NCBI GenBank assembly: GCA_965226885.1
Contig: CBDDEL010000010.1
Location: 224,001-288,000 of the forward strand
DNA length: 64,000 nt
From: Opitutales bacterium
GTDB taxonomy: Bacteria > Verrucomicrobiota > Verrucomicrobiia > Opitutales > UBA2987
Direction: 5' to 3'
Shown: piece by piece, positions 3,464-55,647 of the stretch
Layout: the number at the start of each line of letters is the position of its first letter
How positions within the stretch are numbered: position 1 is the first letter of the stretch
The notes under the pieces: model-generated
Told to the model about the DNA's origin: nothing
What the model saw: only the letters and a program-made list of their open reading frames with translations
Database searches by the model: none
Program-made: the position numbers and the translations under genes

Positions 3464-3898
3464 TCCCGTGTGTCCAATATATTCCTTAATTGATCGGATT
3501 CTGAAGCCCTTTGATGCGTCTCCAAATGTGTTTCCTTTATACCAAAATGTGATCGATACGTTGTAGTTCGCGTCGCAACTAAATCCAAATCGCAAAGGAC
3601 GTTGAGGCCCATCAACCATGACGCGAAAAACTGCATAAGTTTCCATAACTAGACTTCCCTCCTCATCGTAAACTTTGATTCGAGGTGAGTTTGGGATATC
3701 CCATTTTCCTACTTTTTCAGGGTATTCGACATCAATTTCGATTACGCCATCCTTTTTCTCTATTTCTATGCGAAATCCAAGATCTATTGCATTCTTCGGG
3801 GACAATTCTTCGATCTCAGGAGGTGGCGGAGTCGCTATGCAAAAATACGGAAAGGTCCAGACAACACACAGGCCCACGAAATTTCTTATTTTCTGCAT
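3458..3898 (-). CDS. Hypothetical exported protein (146 aa), integron gene cassette
   Basis: ATG lies inside GTTATGC and the stop inside the complementary GCATAAC. Hydrophobic N-terminus; lower GC than flanks. Confidence 0.75.
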   Translation of the reverse strand: MQKIRNFVGLCVVWTFPYFCIATPPPPEIEELSPKNAIDLGFRIEIEKKDGVIEIDVEYPEKVGKWDIPNSPRIKVYDEEGSLVMETYAVFRVMVDGPQRPLRFGFSCDANYNVSITFWYKGNTFGDASKGFRIRSIKEYIGHTGA

Positions 3899-3936
3899 AA
3901 CATATTGTAGGCAGCGTCTACTCAGCCTGTGGTTGG
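3895..3936 (-). other. Putative attI-like cassette docking site, truncated upstream by IS21
   Basis: GCTGAGTAGACGCTGCCTACAATAT|GTTATGC; the 25 nt upstream of the core are 21/25 identical to those at 55522-55553. Confidence 0.55.
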
Positions 3937-4109
3937 TGTAAACGCCGGGATGAAACCGGTACGGGGGTCGGGGTAAAACCGGTACGCTTGGAATAAGGTT
4001 TAGGTTAGTAATTGCAGGTACGTCAAGGTTTAGGGTTTGGGAGTTGGTTTTGGGGATTGGCTTGGGGTCGGTGAGGAGGCCGGAGGCCGACGAGCCGGGC
4101 CCAAGGCGT

Positions 4110-4877
4110 TTATTGTTTTGTGCCACGGCGACGGCGTCGAGCATCGCGCAAGCGGTAGCTTTGCCCGTTGGCTTCGAGGATATGCACCCGATGGGTGAGT
4201 CGGTCCAGCAGAGCTCCGGTGAGCCGTTCGGAACCGAGCACTTCGATCCAGTTCTCAAAGGGCAGGTTGGTGGTGACGATGAGACTGGTGCGCTCGTAAG
4301 CGCGGCTGACCACGTCGAAGAGCAGTTCGGAACCGGTCTTGGAAAAAGGGACGTAACCGAGTTCGTCGAGGATGAGTAGGTCGAGCCTTTCGAGTTGCTT
4401 CATGAAGCGCTGCAGGTCGTGGTTGTCGCGTTGCTCGAGCATATGGGTAACCAGGGCGGTGACCCCGAAGAAACGGATCCGCCGGCCCTGGGCACAGGCG
4501 GCAAAGCCCAGGGCGGTGGCCAGGTGCGTTTTACCGGTACCGGCGTTACCGAGGAGCAGCACGTTTTCGCGCTGGTCGACATACTCCCCGCGCATGAGCT
4601 CTCGGATGAGCGCTTCGTTGATCGAGGGCTGCGCTTCAAAGGCGAAGCTCTCGAGGGTCTTGAGCACGGGGAAACGGGCGTTTTTGATCCGCCGCTGGGC
4701 GGCCCGCTGTTCGCGTTCAATGAGCTCCCGTTCGACCAGATGCAACAAAAAGGCGGCGTAATCGAGCCGGTCCCGGGAACAAGCCGCGGCCACCGCCGGC
4801 CATTCGCGCAGGATGGTGGGCAACTTCAGTTTCTTGAGGTGATGGTGTAACAGCAGCTGGTTTTTTTCTTCCTTCAT
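4110..4877 (-). CDS. istB: IS21 helper ATPase IstB
   Basis: GNAGTGKT Walker A, LLILDELGY Walker B, LLDRLTH motif. Confidence 0.95.
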   Translation of the reverse strand: MKEEKNQLLLHHHLKKLKLPTILREWPAVAAACSRDRLDYAAFLLHLVERELIEREQRAAQRRIKNARFPVLKTLESFAFEAQPSINEALIRELMRGEYVDQRENVLLLGNAGTGKTHLATALGFAACAQGRRIRFFGVTALVTHMLEQRDNHDLQRFMKQLERLDLLILDELGYVPFSKTGSELLFDVVSRAYERTSLIVTTNLPFENWIEVLGSERLTGALLDRLTHRVHILEANGQSYRLRDARRRRRGTKQ

Positions 4878-6379
4878 AAAGCCCCTCCTGGAATCTTGAG
4901 CAGTTCGCTGTAGGCACCGAGGTCAGGGGCGGCCACACGGACGTGACGCAGGTGTGGATGGCCGTCCAGCCGGAAGGTTCTGCTCCCGTAGTCTTCCTGA
5001 GGATAGAGATACTGGGCGATGGCCTCACGAGTCAGTCCCCCCACCCGCAGGGCCGAGACGACGGCCTGCTGCAAGGCCGCCATGGGGTGTTTCTCCAACA
5101 GCCGCAGCACCCGGATATACTCCCGGGTGCCTTCGCCCCCGCATTGGCTTTCGAGCCGGCGTCTGAGGACCTGCAGGCACTGCGGCAACTGCCAGCCCGA
5201 GAGTGGGCGGGCGAAGTCCAAAGCGCCCGGTTTTTTCTCCAGCAAAGCCAGGTAGTGCACCGGCTCGAAAGAGACTTGCTCTTTATCCCAAATGCGGCGG
5301 TGCCGGGCCACCTCTTGGCCCCCACAGAAGATCACCACCTGCCGACAGGACCCTTCCACCACCACCGGATGGTGGGCGCAGCGCACCGGCACCGAATAGT
5401 CGTTGCACTCGAAGCGCACCAGCGAGAGGCTGCTGACGCAGGTCGAGCGTTTGCGGCTCGCTTCAAAGGGTATGGGCGGCAACGGCAGCATGACGGCGCG
5501 CTCCTCGGCCAGCAGTTCCTTTTTCACCGCCCTTTTCCCGCGTAATTTACGCTCCATGTCCCGCTCACATGCCTCCAACAGCTTTGCGTTGAGTTCCTCC
5601 AGGTCCCGAACCTGCGGTACCGGTACCAGGAAGTTGGCCCGGGCATAACGCACGATCCCCTCGACCACGCCCTTCTCGTTGGGCCGGGCGGGCAGACAGA
5701 AGTGTTCCTCGAACAGGTAATGGCTCTGTAGCTGCAGAAACCCGTCGGTCAGCTTGCGTTCACGCGAACCGATAATCTTACCCACCGCCACCTTCGAGTT
5801 GTCATAGCTGATGCGCCGGGGCACCGCCCCGAAAAACTCAAAAGCTCGCAGGTGCCCCTCCCAGAAGCTCTCCGTGCACTCCCGTTCGAACACCTGCACG
5901 AAAAAGGCATCGCTGTAGGGCAGGCTCATGGCAAAAAATGGCCGCCTACGCAATTGCCCCGCCTCCTTCACCAGGGCATGACCGAAGTCCACCTGTCCCT
6001 CCCCGGGGCGGTGCTCCAGCGGCACGAACACTTCCCGCCGCCTCGCTCGCAGCTCGGCCACCACCTCCTTGACCGCCGTGTAGCCCCCTTGGTAGCCCTT
6101 CTCCCGACCCAAACGCTGGTAGATCCGTTTGGCCGTATGGCGCTGCTTCTTGGGCACGTTCCGGTCCGCTTTGAGCACCTCCTCGATCCAGCCCACATAC
6201 GGATCGATCTTGCGCTCTCGCCTCTTCTTGCGCCGGTATCCCGGCGGCTGGGAATAGGCCAGCATCTTTCCCAGGGTCTCCCAGTGCAGTCCCTCTTCTC
6301 GCATTACAGAGCGCTTGCTCTGCTTGTCCCGCAGCACTTTGTGCCGCACTCTTGTCCATTGCTTCATATCTCGATACAC
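4874..6379 (-). CDS. istA: IS21 transposase IstA
   Basis: GEGQVDFG, YDN and NEKGVVE DDE motifs; strong RBS; ATGA overlap with istB. Confidence 0.95.
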   Translation of the reverse strand: MYRDMKQWTRVRHKVLRDKQSKRSVMREEGLHWETLGKMLAYSQPPGYRRKKRRERKIDPYVGWIEEVLKADRNVPKKQRHTAKRIYQRLGREKGYQGGYTAVKEVVAELRARRREVFVPLEHRPGEGQVDFGHALVKEAGQLRRRPFFAMSLPYSDAFFVQVFERECTESFWEGHLRAFEFFGAVPRRISYDNSKVAVGKIIGSRERKLTDGFLQLQSHYLFEEHFCLPARPNEKGVVEGIVRYARANFLVPVPQVRDLEELNAKLLEACERDMERKLRGKRAVKKELLAEERAVMLPLPPIPFEASRKRSTCVSSLSLVRFECNDYSVPVRCAHHPVVVEGSCRQVVIFCGGQEVARHRRIWDKEQVSFEPVHYLALLEKKPGALDFARPLSGWQLPQCLQVLRRRLESQCGGEGTREYIRVLRLLEKHPMAALQQAVVSALRVGGLTREAIAQYLYPQEDYGSRTFRLDGHPHLRHVRVAAPDLGAYSELLKIPGGAL

Positions 6380-6453
6380 TCCTCCTTTCTAGGATAAGCG
6401 TACCGGTTTTAAAGCGCCCTCTTTACCGTACCGGTTTTTCCCCGGCGTTTACA

Positions 6454-8422
6454 CGGCAGGACGCCGCCGGAAACCGCGGTGGCGCCGTGGCAGCCGATGC
6501 AATTTCTTCCGTAGAGGCTTTGGCCGTTGGCGATAGCCGCCTCATCCCCGATCTCCGCGGGCGGTTCCGGCGGCGGCGCGCGCTCTGGGATGGGTGGCAA
6601 AACGATGTCGCCGTCCAGTTTGAAGGCCATTACGCGGCTGATATTCCGCTTTGTCCCGTCGGGGTTGAGGTCCGGGCCCATTATCAGCGCAGAACTTGAC
6701 CCCCAACCCGGCAGAACCGCCACATACTGCTCTCCGCCCGCCTTATACGCAACGGGCGCGGCAGTTATCGCGGCAGTTATACCAGATTGCGCATCGCTGG
6801 CCCATAGCCGTTCGCCTGTGGCGGCGTCATAGGCGACGAAATCGCCGTCCGCATTGCCCTGAAAGAGGAGATTCCCTGCGGTTGAGAGCAGACCGCCATC
6901 GTGCGAACTCGGTTGCGGCAGGCGCCAGACTTCCTTTTGCGTGACGGGATTCCAGGCGAGCAGATGGCCCTGAACGTCGGGGCCGAACTCGGGTCCCAGT
7001 TCATTGGCGGGGTCCACCTCATCCCAGTAGTTCACGCCCAGGTTTTCGCCAAGGGGCCCGGGCCGAAAATTTGTCGTCCAGATAATAAATGAAGGGCTCT
7101 TGCTTCGCCGGAATGTAAACGAGGCCGGTATCCGGATTATAAGACATGGGCTGCCAGTTGTGCGCGCCCCCCGGGCCGGGCGAGATCTTGACCGGCACAC
7201 CGGTCTCATCATATCGCGCGAACGGCGTCTCTACCGGCCGCCCGGTTTCCATATCCACATGGGTCGCCCAGTTGATCGGCATGATTTTTTCGGCGGACAG
7301 AAGCTCGCCGGTGGCGCGATCGATCACGTAGAAAAAGCCGTTCTTCGGCGCCTGCATGATCACTTTGCGCATGCGGCCACCGATCTCCAGATCGGCCAGG
7401 ATCATGTGCTGGACAGCCGTATAATCCCAGGTGTCGCCCGGTACGGTCTGGTAATGCCATACATATTCGCCCGTTTCCGGACGAACGGCGACAATCGACG
7501 CCAGAAACAAATTGTCCCCGCCGCCAGGGCTTCGGATGGCGCGCGACCAGGGCGATCCGTTGCCGACGCCGATATAAAGAAGATCAAGCTCAGGATCGAA
7601 GGCGAAGGAATCCCAGGCCGTGCCGCCGCCGCCATATTTCCACCATTCGCCGGTCCAGGTTTCGGCGGCCATCTCCATCGTCTCGTTTTCAAAACCCTCT
7701 GCTGGATTGCCGGGCACCGCATAGAACCGCCACACTTGCTCGCCCGTCTCGGCGTCATAGGCCGTGACATATCCGCGAACGCCGTATTCAGCGCCCCCAT
7801 TGCCGATAATGACTTTGCCTTTGATTACTCTGGGCGCTCCGGTGATGGAGTAGGGCTTGGCGGGGTCGGTCGTTTGAACCTTCCAATCGACTTCGCCGCT
7901 CTCTGCATCAAGCGCGATGAGGCGACCATCAAGCGCGCCGACATAGACGCGTCCGAGCCAGACCGCTACACCACGGTTTTGAACCCCGCAGCAGGATTTG
8001 ACGTCCCATTCCTTGGGGACTTCCGGATCGAACTGCCAAAGGAGCTCGCCAGTGGCGGCGACGATTGCCTGCACTTTGCTCCAGGCGCTGGTCGAGTACA
8101 TGACGCCGTCGACAACAATGGCCGTTGCCTGCTGACCGCGGTTGGTGTCTAGATCCAAATACCACGCAAGTCCCAGATCGCCGACATTTTCCGTATTGAT
8201 TTGATCGAGAGGGCTGTATCTCTGTTCGGAATAGGTGCGGCCATGGGTGAGCCAATTCTGCGGCTCTGCGTCCGCATTCGCGATCCGCTCGCCGTCGACC
8301 CAAGCCGTTTGCGCCTCTTCACTTTGGCGGTTTCCCGCGTGTCTCGTTGCCGGTTGCCCGCATGCGGCCAACATTGCGGTGCCGAAAAATAAGATTATAG
8401 AGTTTGCAGGTTTGATACGCAT
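6454..8422 (-). pseudogene. PQQ-dependent quinohemoprotein alcohol dehydrogenase (type II), frameshifted and IS-truncated
   Basis: Lipoprotein-like leader, vicinal CC (SCCG), PQQ propeller motifs, GAHNW, CIGCH heme motif. +1 T near 7066-7069, a 12-bp duplication at 6757-6780, and cut by IS21 shortly after CXXCH. Confidence 0.88.
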
Positions 8423-8776
8423 CTTTTCGTTCTCCCTCCATCCAACTGTTTGAGTCCGCCTAACTATACGTAGGTGGAAAATCCGCCGCGACAATTACGT
8501 AGATTAATACTTACGACCGGTATTTACAAGAATATTTGTAATTTTTTGTCTGAGAATAGGATCGCGAAGTATTTCTTGAAATGGAGTGAAATAAGGATGA
8601 ATTTATTTCTCTCATGGAGGCTCGGAGGGGACTGGATGGGTCGGTGTTTTTGGTTTGGGGTTGAAGTGGCTGGCGGATTGTGTCTTTGTGCTTATTTCTT
8701 CTACTTGTTTGGGGTAGAGGGTATGTAATCTATTTATTTTTACTATTGGCATGGCATCAGGCATGGCATCATTTAG

Positions 8777-10207: not shown

Positions 10208-10252
10208 GCTCCAACTTTTAACCACGGAACCACGGATAAATTTAGAAAAATC

Positions 10253-10855
10253 ATGGCATTAGCGAAAATAACGGAAATTACCGGTCGGGGTATCCACTTG
10301 GGGGGGGATGAGGTCGATACGGACCGCATCATCCCAGCGCGCTACCTTAAAAGCATCACTTTCGATGGTTTGGGGGAATTCGCATTTTACGATGAGCGGT
10401 TCGATGGAGAGGGCCATGAAAAGCCGCACCCGATGAACGATGAGCGTTTCAAGAATGCCTCGATCCTACTCGTGGGGTCGAATTTCGGCTGTGGCAGCTC
10501 GCGGGAACATGCTCCTCAGTCGCTGTATCGTTACGGCATTCGGGCCATCCTGGGGGTGAGTTTTGCGGAAATATTTTACGGAAACTCGATCCAGTTGGGC
10601 ATGCCTTGCCTGACCCTGGCGAAAGAAGATATCGAAAAAATCGCGTCTGCCGTGGAGGAAAATCCGGATACGCAGATTCGTGTCAATATCGCTGCTAACG
10701 CCGTTTCGTGTAATGGGGAGGTTTACCCGGCAGGTTTGCCCAGGGGGTCGCAGTCAAGCCTGGTCGAAGGCCGCTGGGATCCCATCGGAGAGTTGCTCGA
10801 AAATGGCGAGAGTGTTGACAGGGTGATTGGCTCCCTTCCCTATATGAATTTATGA
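10253..10855 (+). CDS. leuD: 3-isopropylmalate dehydratase small subunit
   Basis: DTDRIIPARYL and NFGCGSSREHAP motifs; follows leuC. Confidence 0.96.
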   Translation: MALAKITEITGRGIHLGGDEVDTDRIIPARYLKSITFDGLGEFAFYDERFDGEGHEKPHPMNDERFKNASILLVGSNFGCGSSREHAPQSLYRYGIRAILGVSFAEIFYGNSIQLGMPCLTLAKEDIEKIASAVEENPDTQIRVNIAANAVSCNGEVYPAGLPRGSQSSLVEGRWDPIGELLENGESVDRVIGSLPYMNL

Positions 10856-10938
10856 ATTAATCAGGAATGGTTTCCCGATTCTTTTTTTCAACGCCCCTGA
10901 TTCCTCTGCCATGAGCATCCAAAACGACCCATCCTGCC

Positions 10939-11915: not shown

Positions 11916-11935
11916 GGCTGGCAGGTTTTCGGGAG

Positions 11936-13120: not shown

Positions 13121-13236
13121 GGCGCTGACGACTTCCAGTTTCCCTAAGTTAGGCAAACTTCATCCCAATTCAAAGGAAAAAGATGAGAAAGATTCTTGCC
13201 TATGATAGGCGGAATGCAAACAATCGGCCCTACCTG

Positions 13237-14556: not shown

Positions 14557-14591
14557 TCCGGGCCGGGCTACAGGTCACATTTTCCGCAGGC

Positions 14592-17101: not shown

Positions 17102-17117
17102 GGTTTTTTCTTCCTAA

Positions 17118-25486: not shown

Positions 25487-26921
25487 TCAGCGCCAGCCGC
25501 GTTGGCCGGTTAGGTCGCGATTGGGCGTGGGTTGAAATTCCTTGTCCGGCTCTCCTACCAATCCACCATTTTTGACCCATTTGAGATCGCTGCCGTAGAG
25601 GTTTTCCAGCAGCAGGCCACTCAATTGATCGAGGGTTGATTGGTGTTCCGCCTCGGAAGATAGGTCGCAGAGTTCGTGCGGGTCGTTTTGCAGGTCGAAT
25701 AGCTGGAGACGGTTGCCGATAGGATACCAAATCAACTTGAAGCGTTTATCGCGGACCATGCGCATGGAACGATCATCCTCGAAATGTTCGCAATAGAGGT
25801 GGTCCCGGCTGGAATCCGAGATTAAGGAATGCCCTTCAACCGTTTCTGGAATGGGTATATGGCAGAGGTCCAGGAGCGTCGGCATGACGTCCCTTAATTC
25901 CGAAAGACGATTGTCCGTGCGATGATGGCCGACCTCTGAATTATCCGCCGTGGGAATGAGGATCATGGGGATTCGGGCCGATCCCTCGTGCATGTTCGAC
26001 TTGGCCCATATGTTGTGATTGCCGAGCATGTCCCCGTGGTCGGAGACGAACATGATGACGGTATTGTCGAGAAGGCCCTCCTCCCGCAAGGTGCCGATCA
26101 AGAGCCGAATCTGGTGATCGATATAGGTACACTGGGCATAAAACCCCATGCGGGCCAGCTTGAGGTCCCGGTCATTTAAATGGGGCCGGCGGGCATTGTG
26201 TTTTTTCAAGGCGTAGGGAAGATTTTCCAGATCCCGGGCCCATTGGCCGATGAATGGATCGTCAACCCCGAGGTGGTAATACATGTCGAGGTAATCCTTG
26301 GGGGGGGGTGATCGGCGGATGCACCCCGATGTAGGAACAATACCAGAAAGCCGGGCGGGTGGGGTCGCGGCGTTTTATCGTAAAACACATCTCGCGGGTC
26401 GTCCAATTGGCCGGATGGCAGTGTTCGGGCAGGTGCCAGGGCCGCACGGTGTAGGTGTTGGTGCCCATGGCATGAGTCAATTCCTCCCCGGTAAATCCCT
26501 CCCTTTCGAGAAAGTATTCGAAGTCATCCTTGACCCCGCCGTGTTGGTGGCGGCCCTCTTCGCAGAGAATCACTTCATCGAAACCGATGCGGTTCCGTTG
26601 CGGATAAACATGGAGTTTCCCCACCGCATAGGCTTGATAGCCCGCCTCCCGAAAGACCTGCGGCATGGTCGGCAATTCAGGATCCATTTTCAATTGATTG
26701 TTGAACACGCGATCTCCGTGCGTCTTGGCGGTAGTTCCGGTCATCAAAGCCCTCCGGGCCGGAATGCAGGTGGGGGTGGATGTATAGGCCTGTGTGTAAA
26801 GAACGCCACAACGGGCCAATTCATCAAGGGTTGGCGTCATTATGTGCGAATGCCCGGCAATTCCCAGCAGGGAGCCCGGCCAATGGTCAACGCATATTAA
26901 TAAAACGTTAGGCTCACTCAT
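25487..26921 (-). pseudogene. Sulfatase (Cys-type FGly), frameshifted at a G9 run
   Basis: CIPAR motif, GKLH and SDHGDMLG. ORFs 26262-26951 and 25487-26284 join if the G9 at 26300-26308 were G8; could be a sequencing error. Confidence 0.8.
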
Positions 26922-27044
26922 GTGATGTTTCCCTTCCTTTGAGGAATTCAAAGTATTAGGGAATTAATTATGAATACCGGACAAGATAACCATGATCAAT
27001 AGTATAATCCTTCGATCTCTAGTGCGATTGTGTTCCGCCCTCGA

Positions 27045-32756: not shown

Positions 32757-34244
32757 ATGTCTATGAAAAATATAGCCATCCAATGCCTCCTGCGTCCAGC
32801 TTTAACTGTGGTCGACCGGTGCCTCGATTACGATAACTTCCGCGCCACCATTGATCGAATCGATCGGCTGCTGATCGACTCGGAGGTGGAATCGCAGGCC
32901 ATTGAGCTGGCCTTGGAGGGGTGGCAGCCAATGGGTCTAAAGGCCCGGCGGCAGCGGGCCAGTTTTGCCATCAAGGCACTGCGCATGGATACGCTGGGCC
33001 GTCTGCTCGGAGGGATTTCGTTTCGGCATTTGTCGCGGGCTCTGGGCAGCAGCGATCTGTTGGCCGACTTTTGCCGTGTCCGGCAGATCGATGGCATCAG
33101 GGGCATCTCCAAAAGCACCCTGGAGCGGGCCTCGAAGTTTTTCAGCGAAGAGCAGTTGAGGGCCTTGCACCGGACCTTGACTGAGGTGGTGGGCGATGCC
33201 CTTCTGGCCCGGCAGGTGGGATTGGACAAGCCGATTGACACCACCATTTGCCTGATCGACGGCACCTGTTTGGAGGCTAACATTCATTGGCCGACGGACT
33301 GGGTATTACTCAAGGATGTAGCCGGCACGTTGCTCAAAGCGATCCGGCTGATCCGCGAGAAGGCCGGTTTGCGCCATCGCATGCCGATCGAACCGAAGCC
33401 CTTGGCTCGGCAGATGAATCGGCTGTGCATACAGATGACCCACAGCCGGCGGCGAAAGGACAGCGCGCGGCAGCGCAAGGGTATCTTGAGGCAGATGAAA
33501 AAGCTGCTCAAACGGATCGGGGAGCATGCCCGCAGTCACCGGGAATTATTGCAAGCCTGCTGGGAGCAAAGCGATTACAGCGAAAAACAGGTCCAACAGA
33601 TCCTCGCCCGGATGGAGCGCATGAGCGAGCAAATCCCGGTGGTCATCAAACAGGCGCACGAGCGGATCATTGGCGGCCGCCAGGTGAAAAACGCAGAGAA
33701 AGTCTTGAGTGTTTACGAACTCGATGGGCAGGTGATTGTGCGAGGTAAAGCGGGCCAAGAGGTCGAGTTCGGCAACACCCTGTTTTTGGGAGAAAGCGTT
33801 GAAGGGTACCTGCTGGACTGGAAACTCTACGGCAGCCGAACTCCAAGCGAAAATGAACAAATGCAAGAGAGTTTGCAAAGACAGAACCGCTTCAACCTGG
33901 AAGAACCCATAGCGGCCATGTGCGCGGACCGGGGATTTGCCTCCCAGCGGGCCCGCCGGCAGTTAGCCCAGGAGGGAATCTACGACGCGCTCTGTCCACG
34001 CGATCCGAAGCAGTTGAAAAAACGGATGGAGGAACCACTGTTCAGACAATTGCAAAAGCGCCGGGCCAGCACCGAAGGGCGAATCGGGGTATTGAAGAAT
34101 CGCTGGCAGGCCGGGCGGTTGCGCAGCAAAGGCTTTGCCAACCGCTCGATCAGCGTAGCCTGGTCGGTACTCTCGCACAACCTATGGAAAGTAGCCAAGA
34201 TGCTGGCCCAGCAAGACGAACTAAAAACCAAAGCGGCGGCCTAG
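32757..34244 (+). CDS. DDE transposase (IS5/ISNCY-like)
   Basis: IDGTCLEANIHWPTD, VRGKAG..VEFG, ADRGF and R...EGRIG.LK motifs. Confidence 0.9.
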   Translation: MSMKNIAIQCLLRPALTVVDRCLDYDNFRATIDRIDRLLIDSEVESQAIELALEGWQPMGLKARRQRASFAIKALRMDTLGRLLGGISFRHLSRALGSSDLLADFCRVRQIDGIRGISKSTLERASKFFSEEQLRALHRTLTEVVGDALLARQVGLDKPIDTTICLIDGTCLEANIHWPTDWVLLKDVAGTLLKAIRLIREKAGLRHRMPIEPKPLARQMNRLCIQMTHSRRRKDSARQRKGILRQMKKLLKRIGEHARSHRELLQACWEQSDYSEKQVQQILARMERMSEQIPVVIKQAHERIIGGRQVKNAEKVLSVYELDGQVIVRGKAGQEVEFGNTLFLGESVEGYLLDWKLYGSRTPSENEQMQESLQRQNRFNLEEPIAAMCADRGFASQRARRQLAQEGIYDALCPRDPKQLKKRMEEPLFRQLQKRRASTEGRIGVLKNRWQAGRLRSKGFANRSISVAWSVLSHNLWKVAKMLAQQDELKTKAAA

Positions 34245-41433: not shown

Positions 41434-42088
41434 TTAGGAGAATCTCGTGTCCACTTTTTCCAGTGCACATCAACCCAACAGCCAATGTCTGTCTTTGTTG
41501 GAGTGGTCGTTAACATAACAATAGTGGTTTCAGGTTATCTGACGCTGTCCGATAGGTCAAGTAGCGGCAACTACAAGTTATTGCCGGGTAAGAAGTCTTT
41601 GCCCTCATCCCGCCTCTCAAACCTCACATCGCCACCATCCATAACTGCGAATTCCGGATTAACGTTCAAAAACCAGCTTCCCTCCGATAAAAGTTTTTTT
41701 CGACCTTGATATCCTTTATAAAGTCAAGTGGGGTATGAGTTGGATCATCCGTGAGCATCACGAAATCGGCCAGTTTTCCGTTGGTAATCGAGCCTTTGAT
41801 CTTTTCGTCAAACGAGGCCAACGCGCTTCCCATAGTCCAAATCCAGAGCGCTTCCTGGACAGAGATTTTTTGTTTGGCTCCATAGACTTTGCCTTCCGCT
41901 GATTTGCGTGTTACTAAACTCTGAATCCGCAGCATCGGATCGGCCGCGCTGACGCCGTAATCGGAGTTGCCAGCCACAACGATGCCCAAATCCAGGGCCG
42001 ACCGGTTGGCGTGCATCATGTTCCAACGCCTTTCACCGTATTCTTCCATTTTGTCCCCGTGTTCGTAGATATAAGAATGAAGAGCTAA

Positions 42089-44677: not shown

Positions 44678-46244
44678 CCCGGATATTTCGTAAAAAAAGT
44701 ATCGTTGATATGCTTAACTGCTGATATACAGCAGGATAGATCAATAATTAAAGCAATATCAGCGATGACAAAAGGTAAACAATTAAAGCTACAGTTGACA
44801 AGGGTAAAAGGCCGCCGTGTGCGGGTTGATTTCAAGGGCGGAGAGGTTACTTCGGATGCCGGACTGCTTTTGATCCGGGAAGTGGATCGGCAGTTGGGCT
44901 TGACCGAACGAGCGGCCCGACAGTTAGTGGACAAACGGCAGAAGGGCAAAGTACGCCATGAGGTATTGGGGATGCTGCGGCAGCGCGTTTACGGGCTGGT
45001 GGCGGGCTATGAGGATTTGAACGACTTTGATACCCTGCGCCACGATCCATTGTTGCAAACGGTAACGGGGCGCATTGAAACGTTGGCCAGCGCGCCGACT
45101 TTGTGTCGTTTTGAAAACGGGCAGGATCGGCGGGCGGCCTTTGCGGTAAACGAGCTGTTGGTCGAACAGTTCATGGGCTCCTTTGCCGAGGAACCCGAAG
45201 AGATCATCCTGGACTTTGACGCCACCGACAATCCGGTGCACGGGCTCCAGGAGGGACGTTTTTTCCACGGTTATTATGATCATTACTGTTTTCTGCCGCT
45301 ATATGTTTTTTGCGGTGATCAGCTGCTGGTGGCCTACCTGCGGCCGAGCAAGATCGATGCCAGCAAGCATGCCGGGGCCATCCTCAAATTGCTGGTTAAA
45401 CGGATTCGCCAAAGCTGGCCCCGTAAGCGGATTATTTGGCGCGCCGACAGTGGATTTTGTCGAGACCGGATACTCTCTTGGTGCGACCGCAACGAAGTTA
45501 GTTACATCGTGGGGATGGCTCGCAATGCACGCTTGCAGCAAGACGCCCAGCAGTTGCAAAAGCAGGCCAAAGAATGGTTCGAACTAAGGGGTAAAAAACA
45601 ACGGTTATTCCAGGACTTCGTCTATGCTGCCGATTCGTGGCGATGGCTGCGGTTGGTCATCCATAAAGCCGAACACACCGCACAGGGGTCCAACCCGCGC
45701 TTCGTGGTGACGAACCTGCCGGGCGATCCCCAGGAGCTTTACGACAAGGTATACTGTGGCCGCGGTGAAATGGAGAACCGAATCAAGGAACAGATGCAAT
45801 TGTTCAGCGAGCGCACCAGCGCCCATCAATGGTGGGCCAATCAGTGGCGATTGCTCTTGTCGGCGCTGGCCTACACCTTGATGGAAGCCATGCGCCGGCT
45901 AGCCTTAAAAGGGACGAAGTGGGCGCGGGCCCAATGCCACACCCTGCGGCTCAAATTAATCAAGATCGGAGCGGTCATCGTGCGCAACACCCGAACGATT
46001 CACTTTCACCTAAGTGAGAGTTATCCTTGGGCCAGTCTTTTCAACCATGCGGCCCGCCGATTGGTGCCAACCTAAAGGGTGCATTGGTGCTGCCCCCGGC
46101 ACTACCGAACCAATGGGGGAAAGGGGGCAGTGTCTCTACACCCTGAAAAACACCTAAAAATCAAGACGATCTGCTCAAAATACAAAGAAATCCATCTCCA
46201 ATAGCAATAACGAGCCAAACTTTACCCTTCATGAAATATCCGGG
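44678..46244 (+). mobile_element. IS1380-family element, copy F (1567 bp)
   Basis: IRs CCCGGATATTTC; flanks CTAA and CTAA. Confidence 0.95.
44765..46075 (+). CDS. IS1380 family transposase (intact)
   Basis: One substitution (T to K) relative to copy A. Confidence 0.94.
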   Translation: MTKGKQLKLQLTRVKGRRVRVDFKGGEVTSDAGLLLIREVDRQLGLTERAARQLVDKRQKGKVRHEVLGMLRQRVYGLVAGYEDLNDFDTLRHDPLLQTVTGRIETLASAPTLCRFENGQDRRAAFAVNELLVEQFMGSFAEEPEEIILDFDATDNPVHGLQEGRFFHGYYDHYCFLPLYVFCGDQLLVAYLRPSKIDASKHAGAILKLLVKRIRQSWPRKRIIWRADSGFCRDRILSWCDRNEVSYIVGMARNARLQQDAQQLQKQAKEWFELRGKKQRLFQDFVYAADSWRWLRLVIHKAEHTAQGSNPRFVVTNLPGDPQELYDKVYCGRGEMENRIKEQMQLFSERTSAHQWWANQWRLLLSALAYTLMEAMRRLALKGTKWARAQCHTLRLKLIKIGAVIVRNTRTIHFHLSESYPWASLFNHAARRLVPT

Positions 46245-47593
46245 CTAATACAACCCCCAGATCCTTGATCCGTTGGAGAATACGGTCGCTTACTATGCTG
46301 CAGTGTTCGATCCTGTGCCGATGATCTTCTCGCGGCGTTTTCTGCAAGGCTTTTTCGATGGCATTAAGCACCATATCGATTTCCCGGTCGCCATTGGAAT
46401 GAACGGCGATTTGAAAACCCGCTGCATGAATATCGCTGAACAATTCAGTTAGTTTTTCCTGCGACCGTGCAGGCGGTATTCCATAGTAATCCTTTTTGCC
46501 AGTTCTCGGATTTATCCTCTCGTAGGGTTCGTACAACCAACATGTGCGGCCGGATAATGAATTTCCATGGCGCACTTTAATCGGACCGATTTTTAGCCGG
46601 CTGTTTCCAAACTTCGTGTGAATGTTCAACTTTTTCAAATCGGGAAAATATTTTTCACGAATCATCATGTTGATGCGAAGCGGCATTCCTGCTTCGACCA
46701 ATTCCTGATATACACGGATTTTACCTGGATTAACGCCGGCATCGCCAATGCTGGTAATTCCTTTTCGCATGAACTCGTGGAAACAACGTTGATAACCCTC
46801 CAGTTCTTCTTTGCGGGAAGCTTCCGGCATGGGGGGGCCGCCATCTCGAACAAGCCCTCCGGCGCCTTCGCGGCAGATTCCATTCGGTTCCCCGCTATCA
46901 TCGCGATCGAATGCTCCACCAGGCGGATCCGGTGTATCCTGAGTGATGTTTGCCGCCCGCAAAGCGTACGAGTTTACGACGCTTAAATGACCGCTCGAAT
47001 GGCCAATCCAGATGGGATGATCGGTAGATGCCCGATCTAAATCCCAGCGGTTGGGACTTCGACCCAATTTAGTGCCCTGGTAACGACTTCCCCGAATCCA
47101 TTGTCCCTTCGGCGTTATTTCCGCTTTGGCTTTTAAGGCAGCAACAAGTCCCTCCATTGTTTTGACGGCGGCGGGTGACAAATCGACACTGCCTAACCTG
47201 TGCGTCCATAAGTATATCGACCTGGGATGAAGGTGGACATCGATGAAACCAGGTGTAATCGTTTTGCCTTCTGCCTCGATGACCGTAGTATTCTTGCCAA
47301 TCAGCGATCTAACGTCGCCATTCGTACCCACAGCGACAAATATTCCATCTCGAATCGCAAATGCTTCCGCTTGCGATTGGTCTTTATCAACCGTGATTAC
47401 ATTCGCATTGGTTACTACAAGATCAGCGAATAGCGGATCGCCATAAATGGGCATAGAATATATTCCCAGCATAATTATGGTTAAAACGTGGATCAGGATA
47501 CTTAAACTAGAATTCATAGTTTGTTTTGTTAATTTTTTAAATATTCGCTTTTTCGCCGTAGCGAGATCAATGGGGCCGTGGGCCACCTATTTA

Positions 47594-49410
47594 GAGGCTG
47601 TCCCAAAAATATAAAGATTTTATAGTCAACTGGATGACGTTGATAAAAAGAGCCGGAAAGAGCAAGTTTTTGCTCGATCCGGCCAAAAAAGGGTTCTATA
47701 ATTGAGTTAGCGAAAATCAATATAGCCCTTTCTATGAAAAATATAGCCATCCAATGCCTCCTGCGTCCAGCTTTAACTGTGGTCGACCGGTGCCTCGATT
47801 ACGATAACTTCCGCGCCACCATTGATCGAATCGATCGGCTGCTGATCGACTCGGAGGTGGAATCGCAGGCCATTGAGCTGGCCTTGGAGGGGTGGCCGCC
47901 AATGGGTCTAAAGGCCCGGCGGCAGCGGGCCAGTTTTGCCATCAAGGCACTGCGCATGGATACGCTGGGCCGTCTGCTCGGAGGGATTTCGTTTCGGCAT
48001 TTGTCGCGGGCTCTGGGCAGCAGCGATCTGTTGGCCGACTTTTGCCGTGTCCGGCAGATCGATGGCATCAGGGGCATCTCCAAAAGCACCCTGGAGCGGG
48101 CCTCGAAGTTTTTCAGCGAAGAGCAGTTGAGGGCCTTGCACCGGACCTTGACTGAGGTGGTGGGCGATGCCCTTCTGGCCCGGCAGGTGGGATTGGACAA
48201 GCCGATTGACACCACCATTTGCCTGATCGACGGCACCTGTTTGGAGGCTAACATTCATTGGCCGACGGACTGGGTATTACTCAAGGATGTAGCCGGCACG
48301 TTGCTCAAAGCGATCCGGCTGATCCGCGAGAAGGCCGGTTTGCGCCATCGCATGCCGATCGAACCGGAGCCCTTGGCTCGGCAGATGAATCGGCTGTGCA
48401 TACAAATGACCCACAGCCGGCGGCGAAAGGACAGCGCGCGGCAGCGCAAGGGTATCTTGAGGCAGATGAAAAAGCTGCTCAAACGGATCGGGGAGCATGC
48501 CCGCAGTCACCGGGAATTATTGCAAGCCTGCTGGGAGCAAAGCGATTACAGCGAAAAACAGGTCCAACAGATCCTCGCCCGGATGGAGCGCATGAGCGAG
48601 CAAATCCCGGTGGTCATCAAACAGGCGCACGAGCGGATCATTGGCCGCCGCCAGGTGAAAAACGCAGAGAAAGTCTTGAGTGTTTACGAACTCGATGGGC
48701 AGGTGATTGTGCGAGGTAAAGCGGGCCAAGAGGTCGAGTTCGGCAACACCCTGTTTTTGGGAGAAAGCGTTGAAGGGTACCTGCTGGACTGGAAACTCTA
48801 CGGCAGCCGAACTCCAAGCGAAAATGAACAAATGCAAGAGAGTTTGCAAAGACAGAACCGCTTCAACCTGGAAGAACCCATAGCGGCCATGTGCGCGGAC
48901 CGGGGATTTGCCTCCCAGCGGGCCCGCCGGCAGTTAGCCCAGGAGGGAATCTACGACGCGCTCTGTCCACGCGATCCGAAGCAGTTGAAAAAACGGATGG
49001 AGGAACCACTGTTCAGACAATTGCAAAAGCGCCGGGCCAGCACCGAAGGGCGGATCGGGGTATTGAAGAATCGCTGGCAGGCCGGGCGGTTGCGCAGCAA
49101 AGGCTTTGCCAACCGCTCGATCAGCGTAGCCTGGTCGGTACTCTCGCACAACCTATGGAAAGTAGCCAAGATGCTGGCCCAGCAAGACGAACTAAAAACC
49201 AAAGCGGCGGCCTAGAGAGCGGAAAAGCAAGGACAATACTTTTTCACAGCCGTACTGTCGGCTCATACAAAGAAAACCAGGCAACCGGACCCCAAAACCA
49301 GTATCCTAACGTCATAGGAGAGCAAAGTTGATACTCTCCCAAATGCAAATACCTCTAAAATGAGCGCCTATCAAAAGCCCTCGCAAAAATCACCCTTTTG
49401 GGACAGCCTC
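47594..49410 (+). mobile_element. IS5/ISNCY-like element copy 2 (intact, 1817 bp)
   Basis: IRs GAGGCTGTCCCAAAA; flanks TATTTA and TAGCTA. Confidence 0.93.
47734..49215 (+). CDS. DDE transposase (IS5/ISNCY-like)
   Basis: Near-identical to 32757-34244. Confidence 0.92.
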   Translation: MKNIAIQCLLRPALTVVDRCLDYDNFRATIDRIDRLLIDSEVESQAIELALEGWPPMGLKARRQRASFAIKALRMDTLGRLLGGISFRHLSRALGSSDLLADFCRVRQIDGIRGISKSTLERASKFFSEEQLRALHRTLTEVVGDALLARQVGLDKPIDTTICLIDGTCLEANIHWPTDWVLLKDVAGTLLKAIRLIREKAGLRHRMPIEPEPLARQMNRLCIQMTHSRRRKDSARQRKGILRQMKKLLKRIGEHARSHRELLQACWEQSDYSEKQVQQILARMERMSEQIPVVIKQAHERIIGRRQVKNAEKVLSVYELDGQVIVRGKAGQEVEFGNTLFLGESVEGYLLDWKLYGSRTPSENEQMQESLQRQNRFNLEEPIAAMCADRGFASQRARRQLAQEGIYDALCPRDPKQLKKRMEEPLFRQLQKRRASTEGRIGVLKNRWQAGRLRSKGFANRSISVAWSVLSHNLWKVAKMLAQQDELKTKAAA

Positions 49411-49417
49411 TAGCTAG

Positions 49418-50984: not shown

Positions 50985-52057
50985 CTAGGCCCATTGGGCG
51001 GGTCACCATGAGCAAAGACGGTCACAAATTCGCCGAAGCCATTGAATTTCTGGGTGGGGCCATAGTAGCCTGTCACGATGACATCGTTACTGCGGTCAAC
51101 GAATAAGCCGTGGGGCGCATTGAACTGACCGGGCAGGAGGCCTTCCGTGCCCCAGTCGCGGAGGGACTTGCCATGCTGGTCGTAAACATTGACCCGCATG
51201 TTGTCCACGTCCACCACGTAGAGATTTCGCGCCGTATCGTGGTCCATGCCGTGGGCGCGCAGGAGCATGCCGGGTAAACGGCCTTTCTCAGCGAAAATCT
51301 GCAGAAACTCCCCTTCATGGGTGAAGACCTGAATCCTCGGCCGGTCACCCTTGCTGTCGGAAACAAAAATGCGCCCTTCGACATCAATGGTTACTTCACG
51401 AGGGGCGGTAATTTCACCAGGGAGAGCCCCCGCGCCTTTACCCACGTTATTGATAAACACACCCTCTCGCGAATAACGGGGCACCTCGGAATTGCCCATA
51501 TCCGCAATCAGGATATTGCCCTCTTTATCCATGCCGATACCGTGGGGCGCGGAAAGGTGAGCGCCCTCTTCACCCGGTTTCTCTGCCCAAATATGAATGG
51601 ACTTATACGTGATGGGCGCAACGCCAATGATTACCGTGGCAAAGAGGTGTTGATTCGCCGCAGATGGAATGTGGGCCCCAATATGAATTTCACGGGGTGA
51701 CGGCATAACGGCAGGCGCTGTGTAAACGCCCATACCATCAATCGTGCCCCAAACGGCATTGCCGTCAGGCACATCGTTTACGGACCACTTTACCTCATCC
51801 GGCACTTCTGCCGCCATTAATCGGGTGGCCAACATGACAGATGTGAATTTTTGCTGCTCGCCCGGATTCAAATGGATCAAAGAGGGGCTGATCGTAGCCC
51901 GACGATAGCGGAGATCACTGTAATTGAGGGCGCTGCGTCCGATAGAATCAGTATAGGGTCCAACACTATAGGCAATGCCCCCCATTACGGTTAACAAGGT
52001 AAAAATAAGCGCCGCCGTGCGTGTGAATCTGTTTGTTGTCATACTGTTTATAGTCAT
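50985..52057 (-). pseudogene. NHL-repeat (beta-propeller) exported protein with an Ig-like N-domain; N-terminal part
   Basis: PHGI..D.EGNI.IAD, PRE..ID.EGRIFVSD and PGQFNAPHGLFVD repeats; C-terminus displaced to 32346-32616. Confidence 0.88.
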
Positions 52058-52320
52058 GTCCTTATAATTGTGGCCATAATGAATTTCCGCAAGCGTCGCA
52101 AAAACAATTGATGAAAAATATTGCACGAAATCCGTTATTTAGCAAATAACCGAAATGGGTGTCGATGATATCACCTATGCGACTGGATGCCACTCCTTAA
52201 AGTCCATGGCAATCCATACATCGTCTGCGAACCGGGCCACCAACATTTCTACAACATTTTCGGGGTCCGATCCCTTCGCCCACGAACAATTAGTATGGCG
52301 CGGTATCACATGCTGATTCA

Positions 52321-52389
52321 GGCTAACGCTGAATTGAGCTATTTCGAGGTGCGCAAATCCTCGAAATTAGCACAAGTGTTTTGTTCGCC
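52321..52389 (-). other. attC site (69 bp)
   Basis: Minus strand, 1 nt after the peptidase stop: R'' GGCGAAC, AAAAC, L'' ACTTGTGC, TAATTTCGAGG ATTTGCGCA CCTCGAAATA, L' GCTCAAT, TCAGC, R' GTTAGCC. Confidence 0.8.
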
Positions 52390-52921
52390 TTTACTCTTGC
52401 CTAAATAATTCATGAATCTTTTTTGTGTCCTGGCTTCGGACATCATGCAAGAGGCCAAGTTCTTTTAATCTAATTTCAATTACTGTTTTGGACGCTCGAT
52501 ATATCTCCCGGAGTTTGATAGCAACCGCATGAAAATTCGAGATCGAGATATTGCAATTTTGATTGTCGAGATAAATAATCCCATAAAACTTCGTAAGGCC
52601 TAAGCTCGAAATGGCTTCGCTAAAGGCTTCTTTAACTGTCGATAGAGGTAGCAAAACGGAAGATGCAAACTTATTCGCCTGCCATTCCATCCAATCAGAT
52701 GGACCACGAGGTCTCGAAATTCGATCTTCAAGATTCTCATCAGTGTCATCTAGGATATTTTGAATTTTCACATTTCTATGATAGACTAGGTGACCCAACT
52801 CATGAATGAGAGTAAAATTCCATCTATCCGAAGATGGCTCAAGCGAGCTATCAACAAAAATCATCCTTGGGTTGAATCTGTATTTCCCGAGAATTTTCTT
52901 GCCGGATGCTGAAGTGCCTAG

Positions 52922-54488
52922 CCCGGATATTTCATGAAGGGTAAAGTTTGGCTCGTTATTGCTATTGGAGATGGATTTCTTTGTATTTTGAGCAGATCGT
53001 CTTGATTTTTAGGTGTTTTTCAGGGTGTAGAGACACTGCCCCCTTTCCCCCATTGGTTCGGTAGTGCCGGGGGCAGCACCAATGCACCCTTTAGGTTGGC
53101 ACCAATCGGCGGGCCGCATGGTTGAAAAGACTGGCCCAAGGATAACTCTCACTTAGGTGAAAGTGAATCGTTCGGGTGTTGCGCACGATGACCGCTCCGA
53201 TCTTGATTAATTTGAGCCGCAGGGTGTGGCATTGGGCCCGCGCCCACTTCGTCCCTTTTAAGGCTAACCGGCGCATGGCTTCCATCAAGGTGTAGGCCAG
53301 CGCCGACAAGAGCAATCGGCACTGATTGGCCCACCATTGATGGGCGCTGGTGCGCTCGCTGAACAATTGCATCTGTTCCTTGATTCGGTTCTCCATTTCA
53401 CCGCGGCCACAGTATACCTTGTCGTAAAGCTCCTGGGGATCGCCCGGCAGGTTCGTCACCACGAAGCGCGGGTTGGACCCCTGTGCGGTGTGTTCGGCTT
53501 TATGGATGACCAACCGCAGCCATCGCCACGAATCGGCAGCATAGACGAAGTCCTGGAATAACCGTTGTTTTTTACCCCTTAGTTCGAACCATTCTTTGGC
53601 CTGCTTTTGCAACTGCTGGGCGTCTTGCTGCAAGCGTGCATTGCGAGCCATCCCCACGATGTAACTAACTTCGTTGCGGTCGCACCAAGAGAGTATCCGG
53701 TCTCGACAAAATCCACTGTCGGCGCGCCAAATAATCCGCGTACGGGGCCAGCTTTGGCGAATCCGTTTAACCAGCAATTTGAGGATGGCCCCGGCATGCT
53801 TGCTGGCATCGATCTTGCTCGGCCGCAGGTAGGCCACCAGCAGCTGATCACCGCAAAAAACATATAGCGGCAGAAAACAGTAATGATCATAATAACCGTG
53901 GAAAAAACGTCCCTCCTGGAGCCCGTGCACCGGATTGTCGGTGGCGTCAAAGTCCAGGATGATCTCTTCGGGTTCCTCGGCAAAAGAGCCCATGAACTGT
54001 TCGACCAACAGCTCGTTTACCGCAAAGGCCGCCCGCCGATCCTGCCCGTTTTCAAAACGACACAAAGTCGGCGCGCTGGCCAACGTTTCAATGCGCCCCG
54101 TTACCGTTTGCAACAATGGATCGTGGCGCAGGGTATCAAAGTCGTTCAAATCCTCATAGCCCGCCACCAGCCCGTAAACGCGCTGCCGCAGCATCCCCAA
54201 TACCTCATGGCGTACTTTGCCCTTCTGCCGTTTGTCCACTAACTGTCGGGCCGCTCGTTCGGTCAAGCCCAACTGCCGATCCACTTCCCGGATCAAAAGC
54301 AGTCCGGCATCCGAAGTAACCTCTCCGCCCTTGAAATCAACCCGCACACGGCGGCCTTTTACCCTTGTCAACTGTAGCTTTAATTGTTTACCTTTTGTCA
54401 TCGCTGATATTGCTTTAATTATTGATCTATCCTGCTGTATATCAGCAGTTAAGCATATCAACGATACTTTTTTTACGAAATATCCGGG
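52922..54488 (-). mobile_element. IS1380-family element, copy G (1567 bp)
   Basis: TSD CTAG. Confidence 0.95.
53091..54401 (-). CDS. IS1380 family transposase (intact, one W to C change)
   Basis: Near-identical to copy A. Confidence 0.94.
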   Translation of the reverse strand: MTKGKQLKLQLTRVKGRRVRVDFKGGEVTSDAGLLLIREVDRQLGLTERAARQLVDKRQKGKVRHEVLGMLRQRVYGLVAGYEDLNDFDTLRHDPLLQTVTGRIETLASAPTLCRFENGQDRRAAFAVNELLVEQFMGSFAEEPEEIILDFDATDNPVHGLQEGRFFHGYYDHYCFLPLYVFCGDQLLVAYLRPSKIDASKHAGAILKLLVKRIRQSWPRTRIIWRADSGFCRDRILSWCDRNEVSYIVGMARNARLQQDAQQLQKQAKEWFELRGKKQRLFQDFVYAADSWRWLRLVIHKAEHTAQGSNPRFVVTNLPGDPQELYDKVYCGRGEMENRIKEQMQLFSERTSAHQWWANQCRLLLSALAYTLMEAMRRLALKGTKWARAQCHTLRLKLIKIGAVIVRNTRTIHFHLSESYPWASLFNHAARRLVPT

Positions 54489-54689
54489 CTAGTTCCTGAT
54501 CAAAAATGAATGGTATTTTGTACCTTTCATTTATTTGTATTTGATTAGCTATTAGCTATTTGAAGAATCGGCGTACGTTGGGGAGAATCTAGGCACGACT
54601 CGTCGAAAAATCTTATGAACTCTTCGGCCTTATTTTCGATGTCATTTCTATTTACAACAGGAATGCCAAACTTATCTGTATCGTAATTT

Positions 54690-55491
54690 GGTAGTGTATT
54701 AAGTAGGAATGGTGCCTAATTCTTGATTATATTGATGAATGAAAAGTCTCAGACAGGTTTCATGCATACTCTTAAGCTTGGAAAAGGAGAGGGTTTTGCG
54801 TGTGAAACGACCCAGTCGTTGGCGCAGGGTATTGTTCCATCGTTCCACATGGGCCGTTTCACCGGTTTCTTTTCCCACGGATCGGTTATGAGGAAAGACT
54901 TCATCATAAGTGCTCCAAAAGTCGCTGTAGGTGGCACATCTTTTGTAGGCCCGTGGCAGACGCTCGTAAAGTTCCCGGCAACGATACCAATCCCGAGGCC
55001 CAATGGCATAGGAGAGGATTTGACGGGTGCGTCGGCAAAGAGCGATCCAAACCCATTGGGCATCGCTCTTGCGCCCCACAAAAGACCACAGTTCGTCCAG
55101 TTCAATGACATCATGGCGGCGGGCCGCAAGAATCGTGCTTTTGAGCGGTCGCAGCGATTGTCGTTTTTTTTAACCAACTCAAAACGGTGTTGGGACTCAC
55201 CCCGAAGGCGCGCTGTAAACCGCGTAGACTGCTGCGTTCCTGATAGACTCGAAGGATCATTTCTTTTTGCTCTTCGGTGTATTTCACTGTGGGGTTTTCG
55301 CGGCTTTGTTTACCACAATCATGGCAGCGGTAGCGCTGTTTATGGTTGGGCGTCTTGCCAAATCTAATGATATTTTCACTTCCACAGTGCCGCCAATTAA
55401 TAATTTTAGTAACCATGCACTAAGAATAAACTGCCTAACGCTATTTGTACAGCTAAAAATACAAAATAACATTCTTTTTTTATACACTACC
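54690..55491 (-). mobile_element. IS1-family element (802 bp); insA 55111-55416, insB ends at 54699
   Basis: Same IRs as 31536-32337; 8-bp TSD CGTAATTT; first zinc-finger Cys mutated to Trp. Confidence 0.95.
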
Positions 55492-55521
55492 CGTAATTTG
55501 TAGTCATTCTAAAAATATGTG

Positions 55522-55553
55522 GGCTAACACATTGTAAGCAGCGGCTACACAGC
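55522..55553 (-). other. Putative attI-like cassette docking site
   Basis: GCTGTGTAGCCGCTGCTTACAATGT|GTTAGCC. The core is complementary (6/7) to R'' GGCGAAC at the far end of the same cassette. Confidence 0.55.
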
Positions 55554-55647
55554 ATGAGATTAGGGACGATAAAATTTTTGCCGAAATTTGCAAGAAAGTT
55601 TGTAATTCTTTGGCTAAGAAGAGGATTTTTCAATTCTCAGTTTTTTT

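Follow-up and report, generated by a model that had tools for sequence, protein, structure and literature searches.

In the textbook integron, a single recombination site, attI, lies beside a single integrase gene, intI, and clusters of gene cassettes found away from an integrase are usually explained as debris or as insertions into secondary sites. How, then, are two loci to be understood at which unrelated cassette genes follow nearly the same attI-like sequence, 52 kb apart on one contig? Both lie in a stretch of 64,000 nucleotides (nt) from an Opitutales bacterium (assembly GCA_965226885.1, contig CBDDEL010000010.1, positions 224,001 to 288,000), which is referred to here as the window and numbered from its first letter. 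The original prediction, made from these letters alone, took the two loci for parts of a dispersed, integrase-less cassette-capture system, and this reading is supported by a scan for copies, by homology to the DNA next to the genome's own intI, and by the turnover of cassettes between species. The repeated sequence is likely to be an orphan platform made of attI plus promoter: a diverged copy of the intergenic region between intI and attI, which has been multiplied without intI and to which cassettes are joined between the G and the TT of its core (G/TT).

A repeated site at the end of a larger module

In the following, G000 denotes this genome and G002, G003 and G004 are congeners; C-numbers are contigs of G000, and L-numbers are excised platform loci. 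A degenerate 28-mer describing the motif matches the window exactly twice, once at each locus and on the minus strand (Table 1; expectation from 100 shuffles, 0.00). Upstream of GTT, 21 of 25 nt are identical between locus 1 and locus 2, and the likeness ends at GTT(A), so that scan and direct reading both bear out the predicted repeat. The 28-mer forms the 3' end of a larger repeat, termed LEFT, whose length is mostly ~120 nt and reaches ~190 nt in the longest copy. LEFT ends in GCCTAC, 5 nt and GTTRRRY (GTTAGGC or GTTAGCC as read in copies), i.e., in the predicted layout of a simple site, whose two inversely oriented boxes are putative integrase-binding sites. The last ~30 nt are the most conserved part of the module, above two promoter-like boxes (TTGCAA and TATCGT-like), which are conserved as well, lie ~45 nt upstream of GTT and face the cassettes; to judge from their conservation, they are a putative working promoter.

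By the features that define an attC site, i.e., an R''-L''...L'-R' palindrome, folding, and a position 3' of an open reading frame (ORF), LEFT is not an attC. The alignment of copies has no conserved AAC (R'') box at the left end of LEFT, and four copies, folded as DNA, do no better than shuffled sequence (z = -0.27, -1.56, -0.47 and -0.87); the z-scores of four local attC sites, which do fold end to end, range from -2.6 to -3.1. A covariance model of the local attC sites has no match on LEFT, and Rfam finds nothing on the module in four loci. Having neither AAC box nor folding, the motif is not the right arm of a larger attC, which had been a caveat of the prediction.

Could LEFT nevertheless be the site that ends the preceding unit, i.e., a long attC or an attI-type cassette end that belongs to the gene upstream? 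At locus 2, an attC and a 246-aa ORF do lie upstream of the right part of LEFT, near its left end the long form contains the motif again as an imperfect inverted repeat, and cassettes ending in partial attI sites have been reported for mobile integrons in the available part of one study (PMC12901181). Against this speak the left end and the folding of LEFT, as described above. Moreover, the DNA upstream of different copies is unrelated and shares no common ORF arrangement, and nowhere in G000 does LEFT directly follow RIGHT, the conserved module that closes many of these units (see below). We therefore regard LEFT as a property of the upstream gene as extremely improbable.

An old family of copies in one genus

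At up to 3 mismatches, the 28-mer occurs in 7 copies genome-wide, and a profile of the long LEFT form (nhmmer) yields 25 matches at E ≤ 6.5e-7 in G000. When a 131-nt LEFT copy is used as a BLAST query, all four congeners give matches (4, 8, 13 and 13), while 36 other relatives give none. The queried copy is 88% identical to a copy in G004 but at most 84% to any full-length paralogue in its own genome, which implies that the family predates the species. The copies diverge by 11-29% from the queried one and are thus old.

Cassettes are joined at G/TT

The likeness among LEFT copies stops at GTT. At locus 1, the junction GTTATGC (3901-3895) is complementary to the R'' of the following attC, GCATAAC, at 7 of 7 positions, and at locus 2, GTTAGCC (55528-55522) is complementary to R'' GGCGAAC at 6 of 7. 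The claim that each core complements the R'' of its own attC therefore holds in full at locus 1 and with one mismatch at locus 2. The long distance from junction to attC at locus 2 (3.1 kb) results from two insertion sequences (ISs) inside a single cassette gene. Insertions at the same G/TT are seen in at least 15 copies over four species, i.e., LEFT copies have the junction expected of an attI, at G/TT of a GTTRRRY core with a complementary R''. At L018 of G003, the junction reads GATATGC and the R'' of the cassette GCATATC; this compensating GAT/ATC change places the crossover after the G, as in integrons. The genes behind LEFT are of accessory types: glyoxalase, tautomerase, GrpB, methyltransferases, HsdM, HamA, Mrr, TIR and M78.

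A junction test, in which the 4 nt behind GTT had to recur as their exact complement, followed by a hairpin and another GTT, all within 3.5 kb, was passed by 5 of the 22 copies with a 3' end, one of these being spurious (inside an IS copy), and by 206 of 6000 random GTT sites (3.4%). The attC covariance model was built from 9 sites (a second alignment gave 6 pairs, and the AAC/GTT pairs were added by hand). Searched against 305 kb of loci at E ≤ 5, it found 18 distinct attC matches, 9 of which are its training sequences; all 9 new ones lie on the strand of LEFT, downstream of LEFT or a LEFT part. The model is weak, as it misses the known sites C16:369212, C16:903487 and C15:164632, and in the genome-wide search of G000, 150 of 904 candidates were scored. 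The attC of locus 1 reaches 57.8 bits, being itself one of the model's building sequences, and that of locus 2 only 16.2 bits (E=0.66). Altogether, an attC is well supported behind 7 of 23 LEFT copies in G000, both window loci included, and weakly behind one more; in the relatives, it was found behind 8 of the 20 distinct copies examined. The genome scan suggested with the prediction, for motif copies followed by ORF and attC, thus returned many copies, at least 7 of them with attC cassettes on the same strand.

RNAalifold returned no structure for a first alignment of 11 attC sites. Two home-made scanners (AAC...GTT plus hairpin) were rejected, since they did no better than on reversed-sequence controls, their excess coming from one stretch inside istB. 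Four more attC-like model matches (E 1e-4 to 0.7) were noted at C14:54745-54803(-), C15:568813-568875(+), C11:323690-323747(+) and C9:43685-43741(-); the 4 kb upstream of each contain no LEFT 3' end at up to 3 mismatches.

Relation to the integrase gene and its linked site

G000 encodes a single integron integrase (TIGR02249; C10:135411-138907; model positions 1-156 score 186.7 bits, positions 155-312 score 233.8 bits). As the prediction had proposed to check, intI could be located: it lies on the same contig as the window, at a distance of 89 kb (locus 1) or 141 kb (locus 2). Upstream of it, on the opposite strand, is a site that ends in GCCTAC, 5 nt and GTTAGAT and thereby shares the layout of the motif. 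The long form of LEFT is homologous to intI-proximal DNA. Window positions 57325-57420(+) match the 100 nt just upstream of intI, including the first bases of the gene, at 72 of 100 positions (blastn, E=3e-12), and the LEFT profile is colinear with the spacer between intI and attI, albeit weakly (E=0.0011 in 742 nt). Common descent with the intI-linked attI region is thus found for the left part of LEFT and only weakly for the right part. In two other respects LEFT departs from what is expected of an attI: its copies do not adjoin intI, and there are ~25 of them per genome instead of one.

The intI-linked region itself recurs without intI. It forms, together with two near-identical copies elsewhere, a set of platforms referred to as type A, and the likeness among the three ends at GTT. 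One copy heads an array on C15, in which each of the first 3 cassettes has an exact R''/R' match and a 4th cassette starts after them; the other is cut by an IS after 75 nt (Table 1).

A palindrome, ATGCGT, 2 nt, ACGCAT, marks the intI-proximal end of each of the three type-A platforms and the corresponding end of one long LEFT copy, and may be an operator for the expression of intI and/or of the cassettes. Its total count of 6 equals that of the reversed control, i.e., it is not enriched, and only its placement at four platform copies is noteworthy.

The homology to the intI region also bears on a different view of LEFT, namely that it is a portable or regulon-type promoter or 5' leader, which happens to end in a core-like GTTAGGC and behind which cassettes were inserted as at secondary (attG-like) sites. 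In line with this, more than half of the copies lack a detected attC, LEFT persists in genomes in which no intI was found, boxes resembling -35 and -10 elements are conserved ~45 nt in front of GTT, a PQQ-dehydrogenase gene has a partial look-alike of LEFT upstream, and integrase-driven insertion outside att sites has been published (bioRxiv 10.1101/2022.09.11.507474, in the part available). However, a mere promoter or leader would not account for a long form whose homology to the DNA next to intI extends into the first bases of the gene, nor for a simple-site layout equal to that of the intI-linked attI. Conservation, moreover, peaks in the last ~30 nt and not at the promoter boxes, and the same G/TT is used in all of the copies with insertions mentioned above. 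This alternative is unlikely.

The RIGHT module and cassette turnover

RIGHT is a conserved stretch of ~100 nt after the last attC, starting at its R' core, mostly GTTAACG. It has 5 matches in G000, of which 4 close LEFT-headed units and one follows an IS-truncated cassette, and a further six LEFT-headed units, in G002, G003 and G004, end with it. The spacing from LEFT to RIGHT ranges from 485 to 3655 nt. The position of RIGHT on the far side of the cassettes suggests that LEFT and RIGHT once formed a continuous empty site. RIGHT plus LEFT was also considered as one mobile cassette; this candidate was dropped, because RIGHT is nowhere contiguous with a following LEFT in G000.

A comparison of cassette content across strains, likewise suggested at the outset, was possible at locus 1. 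The M20 peptidase gene beside it has an 89% identical orthologue in the sister species G004, again with a LEFT copy upstream. The two loci have LEFT and the RIGHT/M20 flank in common (89% over 1347 nt from just after the last R' core), but their inserts differ: 485 nt with the 146-aa ORF in G000, and in G004 1087 nt that hold a different ORF, broken up by an IS200-like element. On the upstream side, the flank of this orthologue does not allow a comparison. None of the 4 congeners has the 146-aa ORF, and in G003 and G002 the M20 gene has no LEFT, cassette or RIGHT upstream. A second orthologous pair (C12:273964 in G000, L047, and L032 in G004) shares its downstream flank and has unrelated first genes, each of which ends in an R'-like core before the common flank.

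At a third locus, L005 (C16:902400-905427 in G000), the upstream flank matches that of one platform of the pair L027/L029 in G004 (92% over 428 nt), whereas the downstream flank matches the other platform of the pair (92% over 930 nt). The platform is thus a point at which synteny is lost, possibly because platforms have recombined with one another. L005 also contains a partial Rfam MISL RNA (RF03079; L005:2673-3028(-), C16 near 905 kb), which is cut by the end of the locus and scores 250 bits, below the gathering score of 274.6.

The families of ISs in this genome raise the question of whether a single ordinary integron might simply have been shattered by IS rearrangement, without any dedicated satellite sites. 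ISs are extremely abundant (63 near-full copies of IS21 and 251 long DDE_Tnp_1_4 matches), and IS ends abut LEFT or its cassettes at window position 3937, at C16:355841, C13:343479 and C17:646870, and inside the locus-2 cassette. Rearrangement is also apparent from the unrelated flanks of the IS21 element at locus 1. Breaking one integron, however, cannot multiply an attI to more than 20 copies; the copies are as old as their divergence indicates and occupy orthologous positions in another species, and many of them carry a RIGHT end of their own. Shattering is accordingly a decidedly improbable explanation.

How the platforms might work

If LEFT is indeed an orphan platform of attI and promoter, its long form would be ordered as a remnant of the promoter and operator of intI, then a promoter-like stretch directed toward the cassettes, then the simple site GCCTAC, 5 nt, GTTRRRY. 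The module would have spread, without intI, as multiplied copies to roughly two dozen chromosomal sites in the genus. An integron integrase with its gene elsewhere would act on a circular cassette and recombine its folded attC with LEFT at G/TT, and integration would place the cassette gene directly behind the promoter-like stretch. The LEFT copies were probably served by IntI in trans.

A more far-reaching and tentative interpretation, which we think somewhat less probable than not, is that of a distributed integron, in which a pad of ~300 nt, LEFT plus RIGHT, has been disseminated in one piece to more than 20 sites. Each of these would be an independent, expressed capture point, and all would depend on one integrase that is encoded elsewhere or brought in transiently by incoming DNA. 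Such a pad would consist of operator remnant, promoter, attI and an outward promoter-like end, and it would hold single cassettes or short arrays, including defence genes. Recombination from pad to pad might then reshuffle the chromosome.

Several observations weigh against orphan platforms served by an integrase. The only intI of G000 is split by an IS21 element of ~2.5 kb, which leaves no working integrase, and the integron system of this strain is therefore probably frozen at present. In the four congeners (assemblies 81-93% complete), no intI was found at E ≤ 1e-20, though LEFT is kept there; a recombinase-like gene on contig C311 of G003 has no LEFT-like DNA upstream. The likeness of LEFT's right half to the intI-linked attI amounts to only 6 bits, and the genome-wide nhmmer search misses the intI-linked copy at E ≤ 10 and detects the remaining type-A copies, of which there are two, only at E=1.2 and E=2. 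An attC was detected at only the minority of copies given above, and four copies in relatives, which precede genes for HamA, HsdM, TIR and Mrr, have no matching R'' within 6-9 kb. As for the proposed promoter, a consensus sigma-70 scan does not call it (8 of 12 positions match by hand count), a look-up of RNA runs returned none that contains the locus, and a housekeeping-type gene (PQQ-dehydrogenase) is preceded by an ordinary promoter to which the middle of LEFT bears a resemblance. Finally, no empty LEFT-RIGHT junction was seen in G000 or in the loci of the relatives.

Comparison with known systems

LEFT resembles the attI and cassette promoter (Pc) of chromosomal integrons in that it forms no hairpin, has a GTTRRRY core after an imperfect inverted box, is crossed over at G/TT, directs a promoter-like stretch toward the cassettes, and is homologous to the intI-linked site of its own genome. 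It differs from them in lying away from intI, in occurring as diverged paralogues at many sites per genome instead of one, and in the conserved right-hand module that many copies carry. Secondary sites need little more than a short core; here, in contrast to attG insertion, 120-190 nt of flanking sequence are conserved and homologous to a true attI region. What is shared with attG insertions, as described in the available part of a preprint (bioRxiv 10.1101/2022.09.11.507474), is that the cassettes are chromosomal and lie outside the integron proper.

Integrase-less clusters of at least 2 attC sites have been named CALIN (Cury et al., 2016; PMC4889954). The available text of that study proposes IS elements and rearrangements as one origin of CALIN, and states that the attI of most integrons is not known and could not be searched. 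The attC cassettes described here are CALIN-like in being far from intI and in having ISs and rearrangements nearby. Unlike the CALIN of that text, the units are headed by a recognizable, repeated module of attI plus promoter, and several hold a single cassette, which places them below the definition. Locus 1 has one attC; in the region of locus 2 there are two, separated by 4.7 kb that include two ISs. In delta-attI cassettes, too, sequence derived from attI is found away from its place next to intI; according to the part of the report available (PMC12901181), these are partial attI sites inside the arrays of clinical mobile integrons, whereas here whole modules are dispersed over the chromosome of an environmental genus.

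A full-text literature search for multiple, orphan, solo or integrase-less attI sites found no paper describing such a family. LEFT is probably a multi-copy, integrase-less platform of attI plus promoter and, as such, a variant of the integron platform. If so, one recombinase could run many expressed capture sites, and each cassette would stand first behind a promoter rather than being silenced deep in an array. The module would also provide a sequence handle for finding attI sites, and its diverged variants would constitute a natural test set for recognition by IntI. The persistence of pads where no intI was found raises the question of whether they depend on integrases that arrive on mobile DNA.

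The two loci and their surroundings

The features of both loci and the platforms mentioned above are listed in Table 1.

Table 1. Location of LEFT, cassettes, attC sites and associated elements. Plain numbers are window positions; C-numbers are contigs of G000.
Feature	Location	Strand	Basis
Locus 1, LEFT remnant, last ~38-41 nt (motif 3899-3926; crossover between G3901 and T3900)	3896..3936	-	nhmmer profile 169-209, E=6.5e-7
Locus 1, cassette gene, 146 aa, no Pfam family	3458..3898	-	ORF and Pfam
Locus 1, attC (R'' GCATAAC 3463-3457, R' GTTAACG 3413-3407)	3407..3463	-	fold z=-2.75
Locus 1, RIGHT, from last R' core to before M20 peptidase gene	3300..3414	-	nhmmer E=3.8e-29
IS21-family element (IstA 4874-6376, IstB 4110-4874)	3937..6452	-	Pfam IstB_IS21, Mu-transpos_C_2
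Weak match to promoter-like middle of LEFT, no attI-like end	8494..8564	-	nhmmer E=0.0016 and 1e-4
Locus 2, LEFT copy (motif 55526-55553; crossover between G55528 and T55527; promoter-like stretch)	55524..55640	-	nhmmer profile 92-208, E=6.1e-28
Locus 2, cassette, one M78/IrrE-like peptidase gene broken by two ISs	52390..55527	-	Pfam and reading
IS1-like element in locus-2 cassette, flanked by repeated aaattac	about 54690-55492		
DDE_Tnp_1_4 IS in locus-2 cassette	about 52918-54492		
Locus 2, attC (R'' GGCGAAC 52389-52383, R' GTTAGCC 52327-52321)	52321..52389	-	fold z=-2.66
Further attC (R'' CTCTAAC, R' GTTAGTT)	57039..57105	-	covariance model 26.8 bits, E=0.0011
Left part of long LEFT copy (profile 31-103)	57280..57420	-	nhmmer E=5.8e-13
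Type-A copy without intI, heads array	C15:160940-161150		
Type-A copy without intI, cut by IS after 75 nt	C17:647160-646950		
Palindrome ATGCGT, 2 nt, ACGCAT	C10:135366, C15:160946, C17:647140, C16:368591		
LEFT copies with solid attC, G000	C10:227899, C10:279526, C16:342568, C16:78050, C16:368796, C16:903900, C16:355841 (IS-truncated)		
LEFT copy with weak attC, G000	C14:561757		
LEFT copies with attC, relatives	G004: L027, L028, L029, L032, L037; G003: L018, L023; G002: L020		

Locus 1 retains only the last ~38 nt of LEFT because an IS21 element ends at 3937; the same element cuts LEFT at one end and a PQQ-dehydrogenase gene at the other (~6452). Its flanks are unrelated and a target duplication is absent, which points to rearrangement at this locus. 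Among contigs from four DNA runs, one from X1 and one from X3 connect the 38-nt motif with the flank after the attC, skipping 500 nt; since the letters in between are not available and the likeness threshold was 85, these contigs may come from a relative, and no conclusion was drawn. The PQQ-dependent dehydrogenase itself, at 6409-8494(-), is read in two ORFs that overlap (7019-8494 and 6409-7212), suggesting a frameshift, and the end of the IS21 element truncates its C-terminal haem-binding part.

At locus 2, the left LEFT part lies on what remains of the promoter region of intI and of the gene's first bases, and no integrase gene follows. Between the left and right LEFT parts (profile 31-103 and 92-208) lie ~1.66 kb (55632-57290, minus strand), which hold a 29-codon ORF remnant, the further attC and, after it, the membrane-protein-like ORF of 246 aa (57016-56276); the arrangement may represent either an insertion into a single module or a pair of partial ones.

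The IS21-family element is present in G000 in its 63 near-full copies at ≥98.8% identity, and the 251 DDE_Tnp_1_4 matches are BLAST high-scoring segment pairs of ≥1400 nt; the window has at least 5 full copies of the latter element (456-aa ORFs), plus fragments. Further genes of the window are interrupted: a sulfatase gene lies in two ORFs at 25487-26948(-), and an amidohydrolase gene is in two pieces ~4 kb apart (41666-42046 and 46222-47583, minus strand), with IS copies and a Sel1-repeat gene between them. Two ORFs of ~495 aa, at 32757-34244(+) and 47734-49215(+), have the same nested-ORF pattern and no Pfam family, and look like another repeated, possibly mobile, element.

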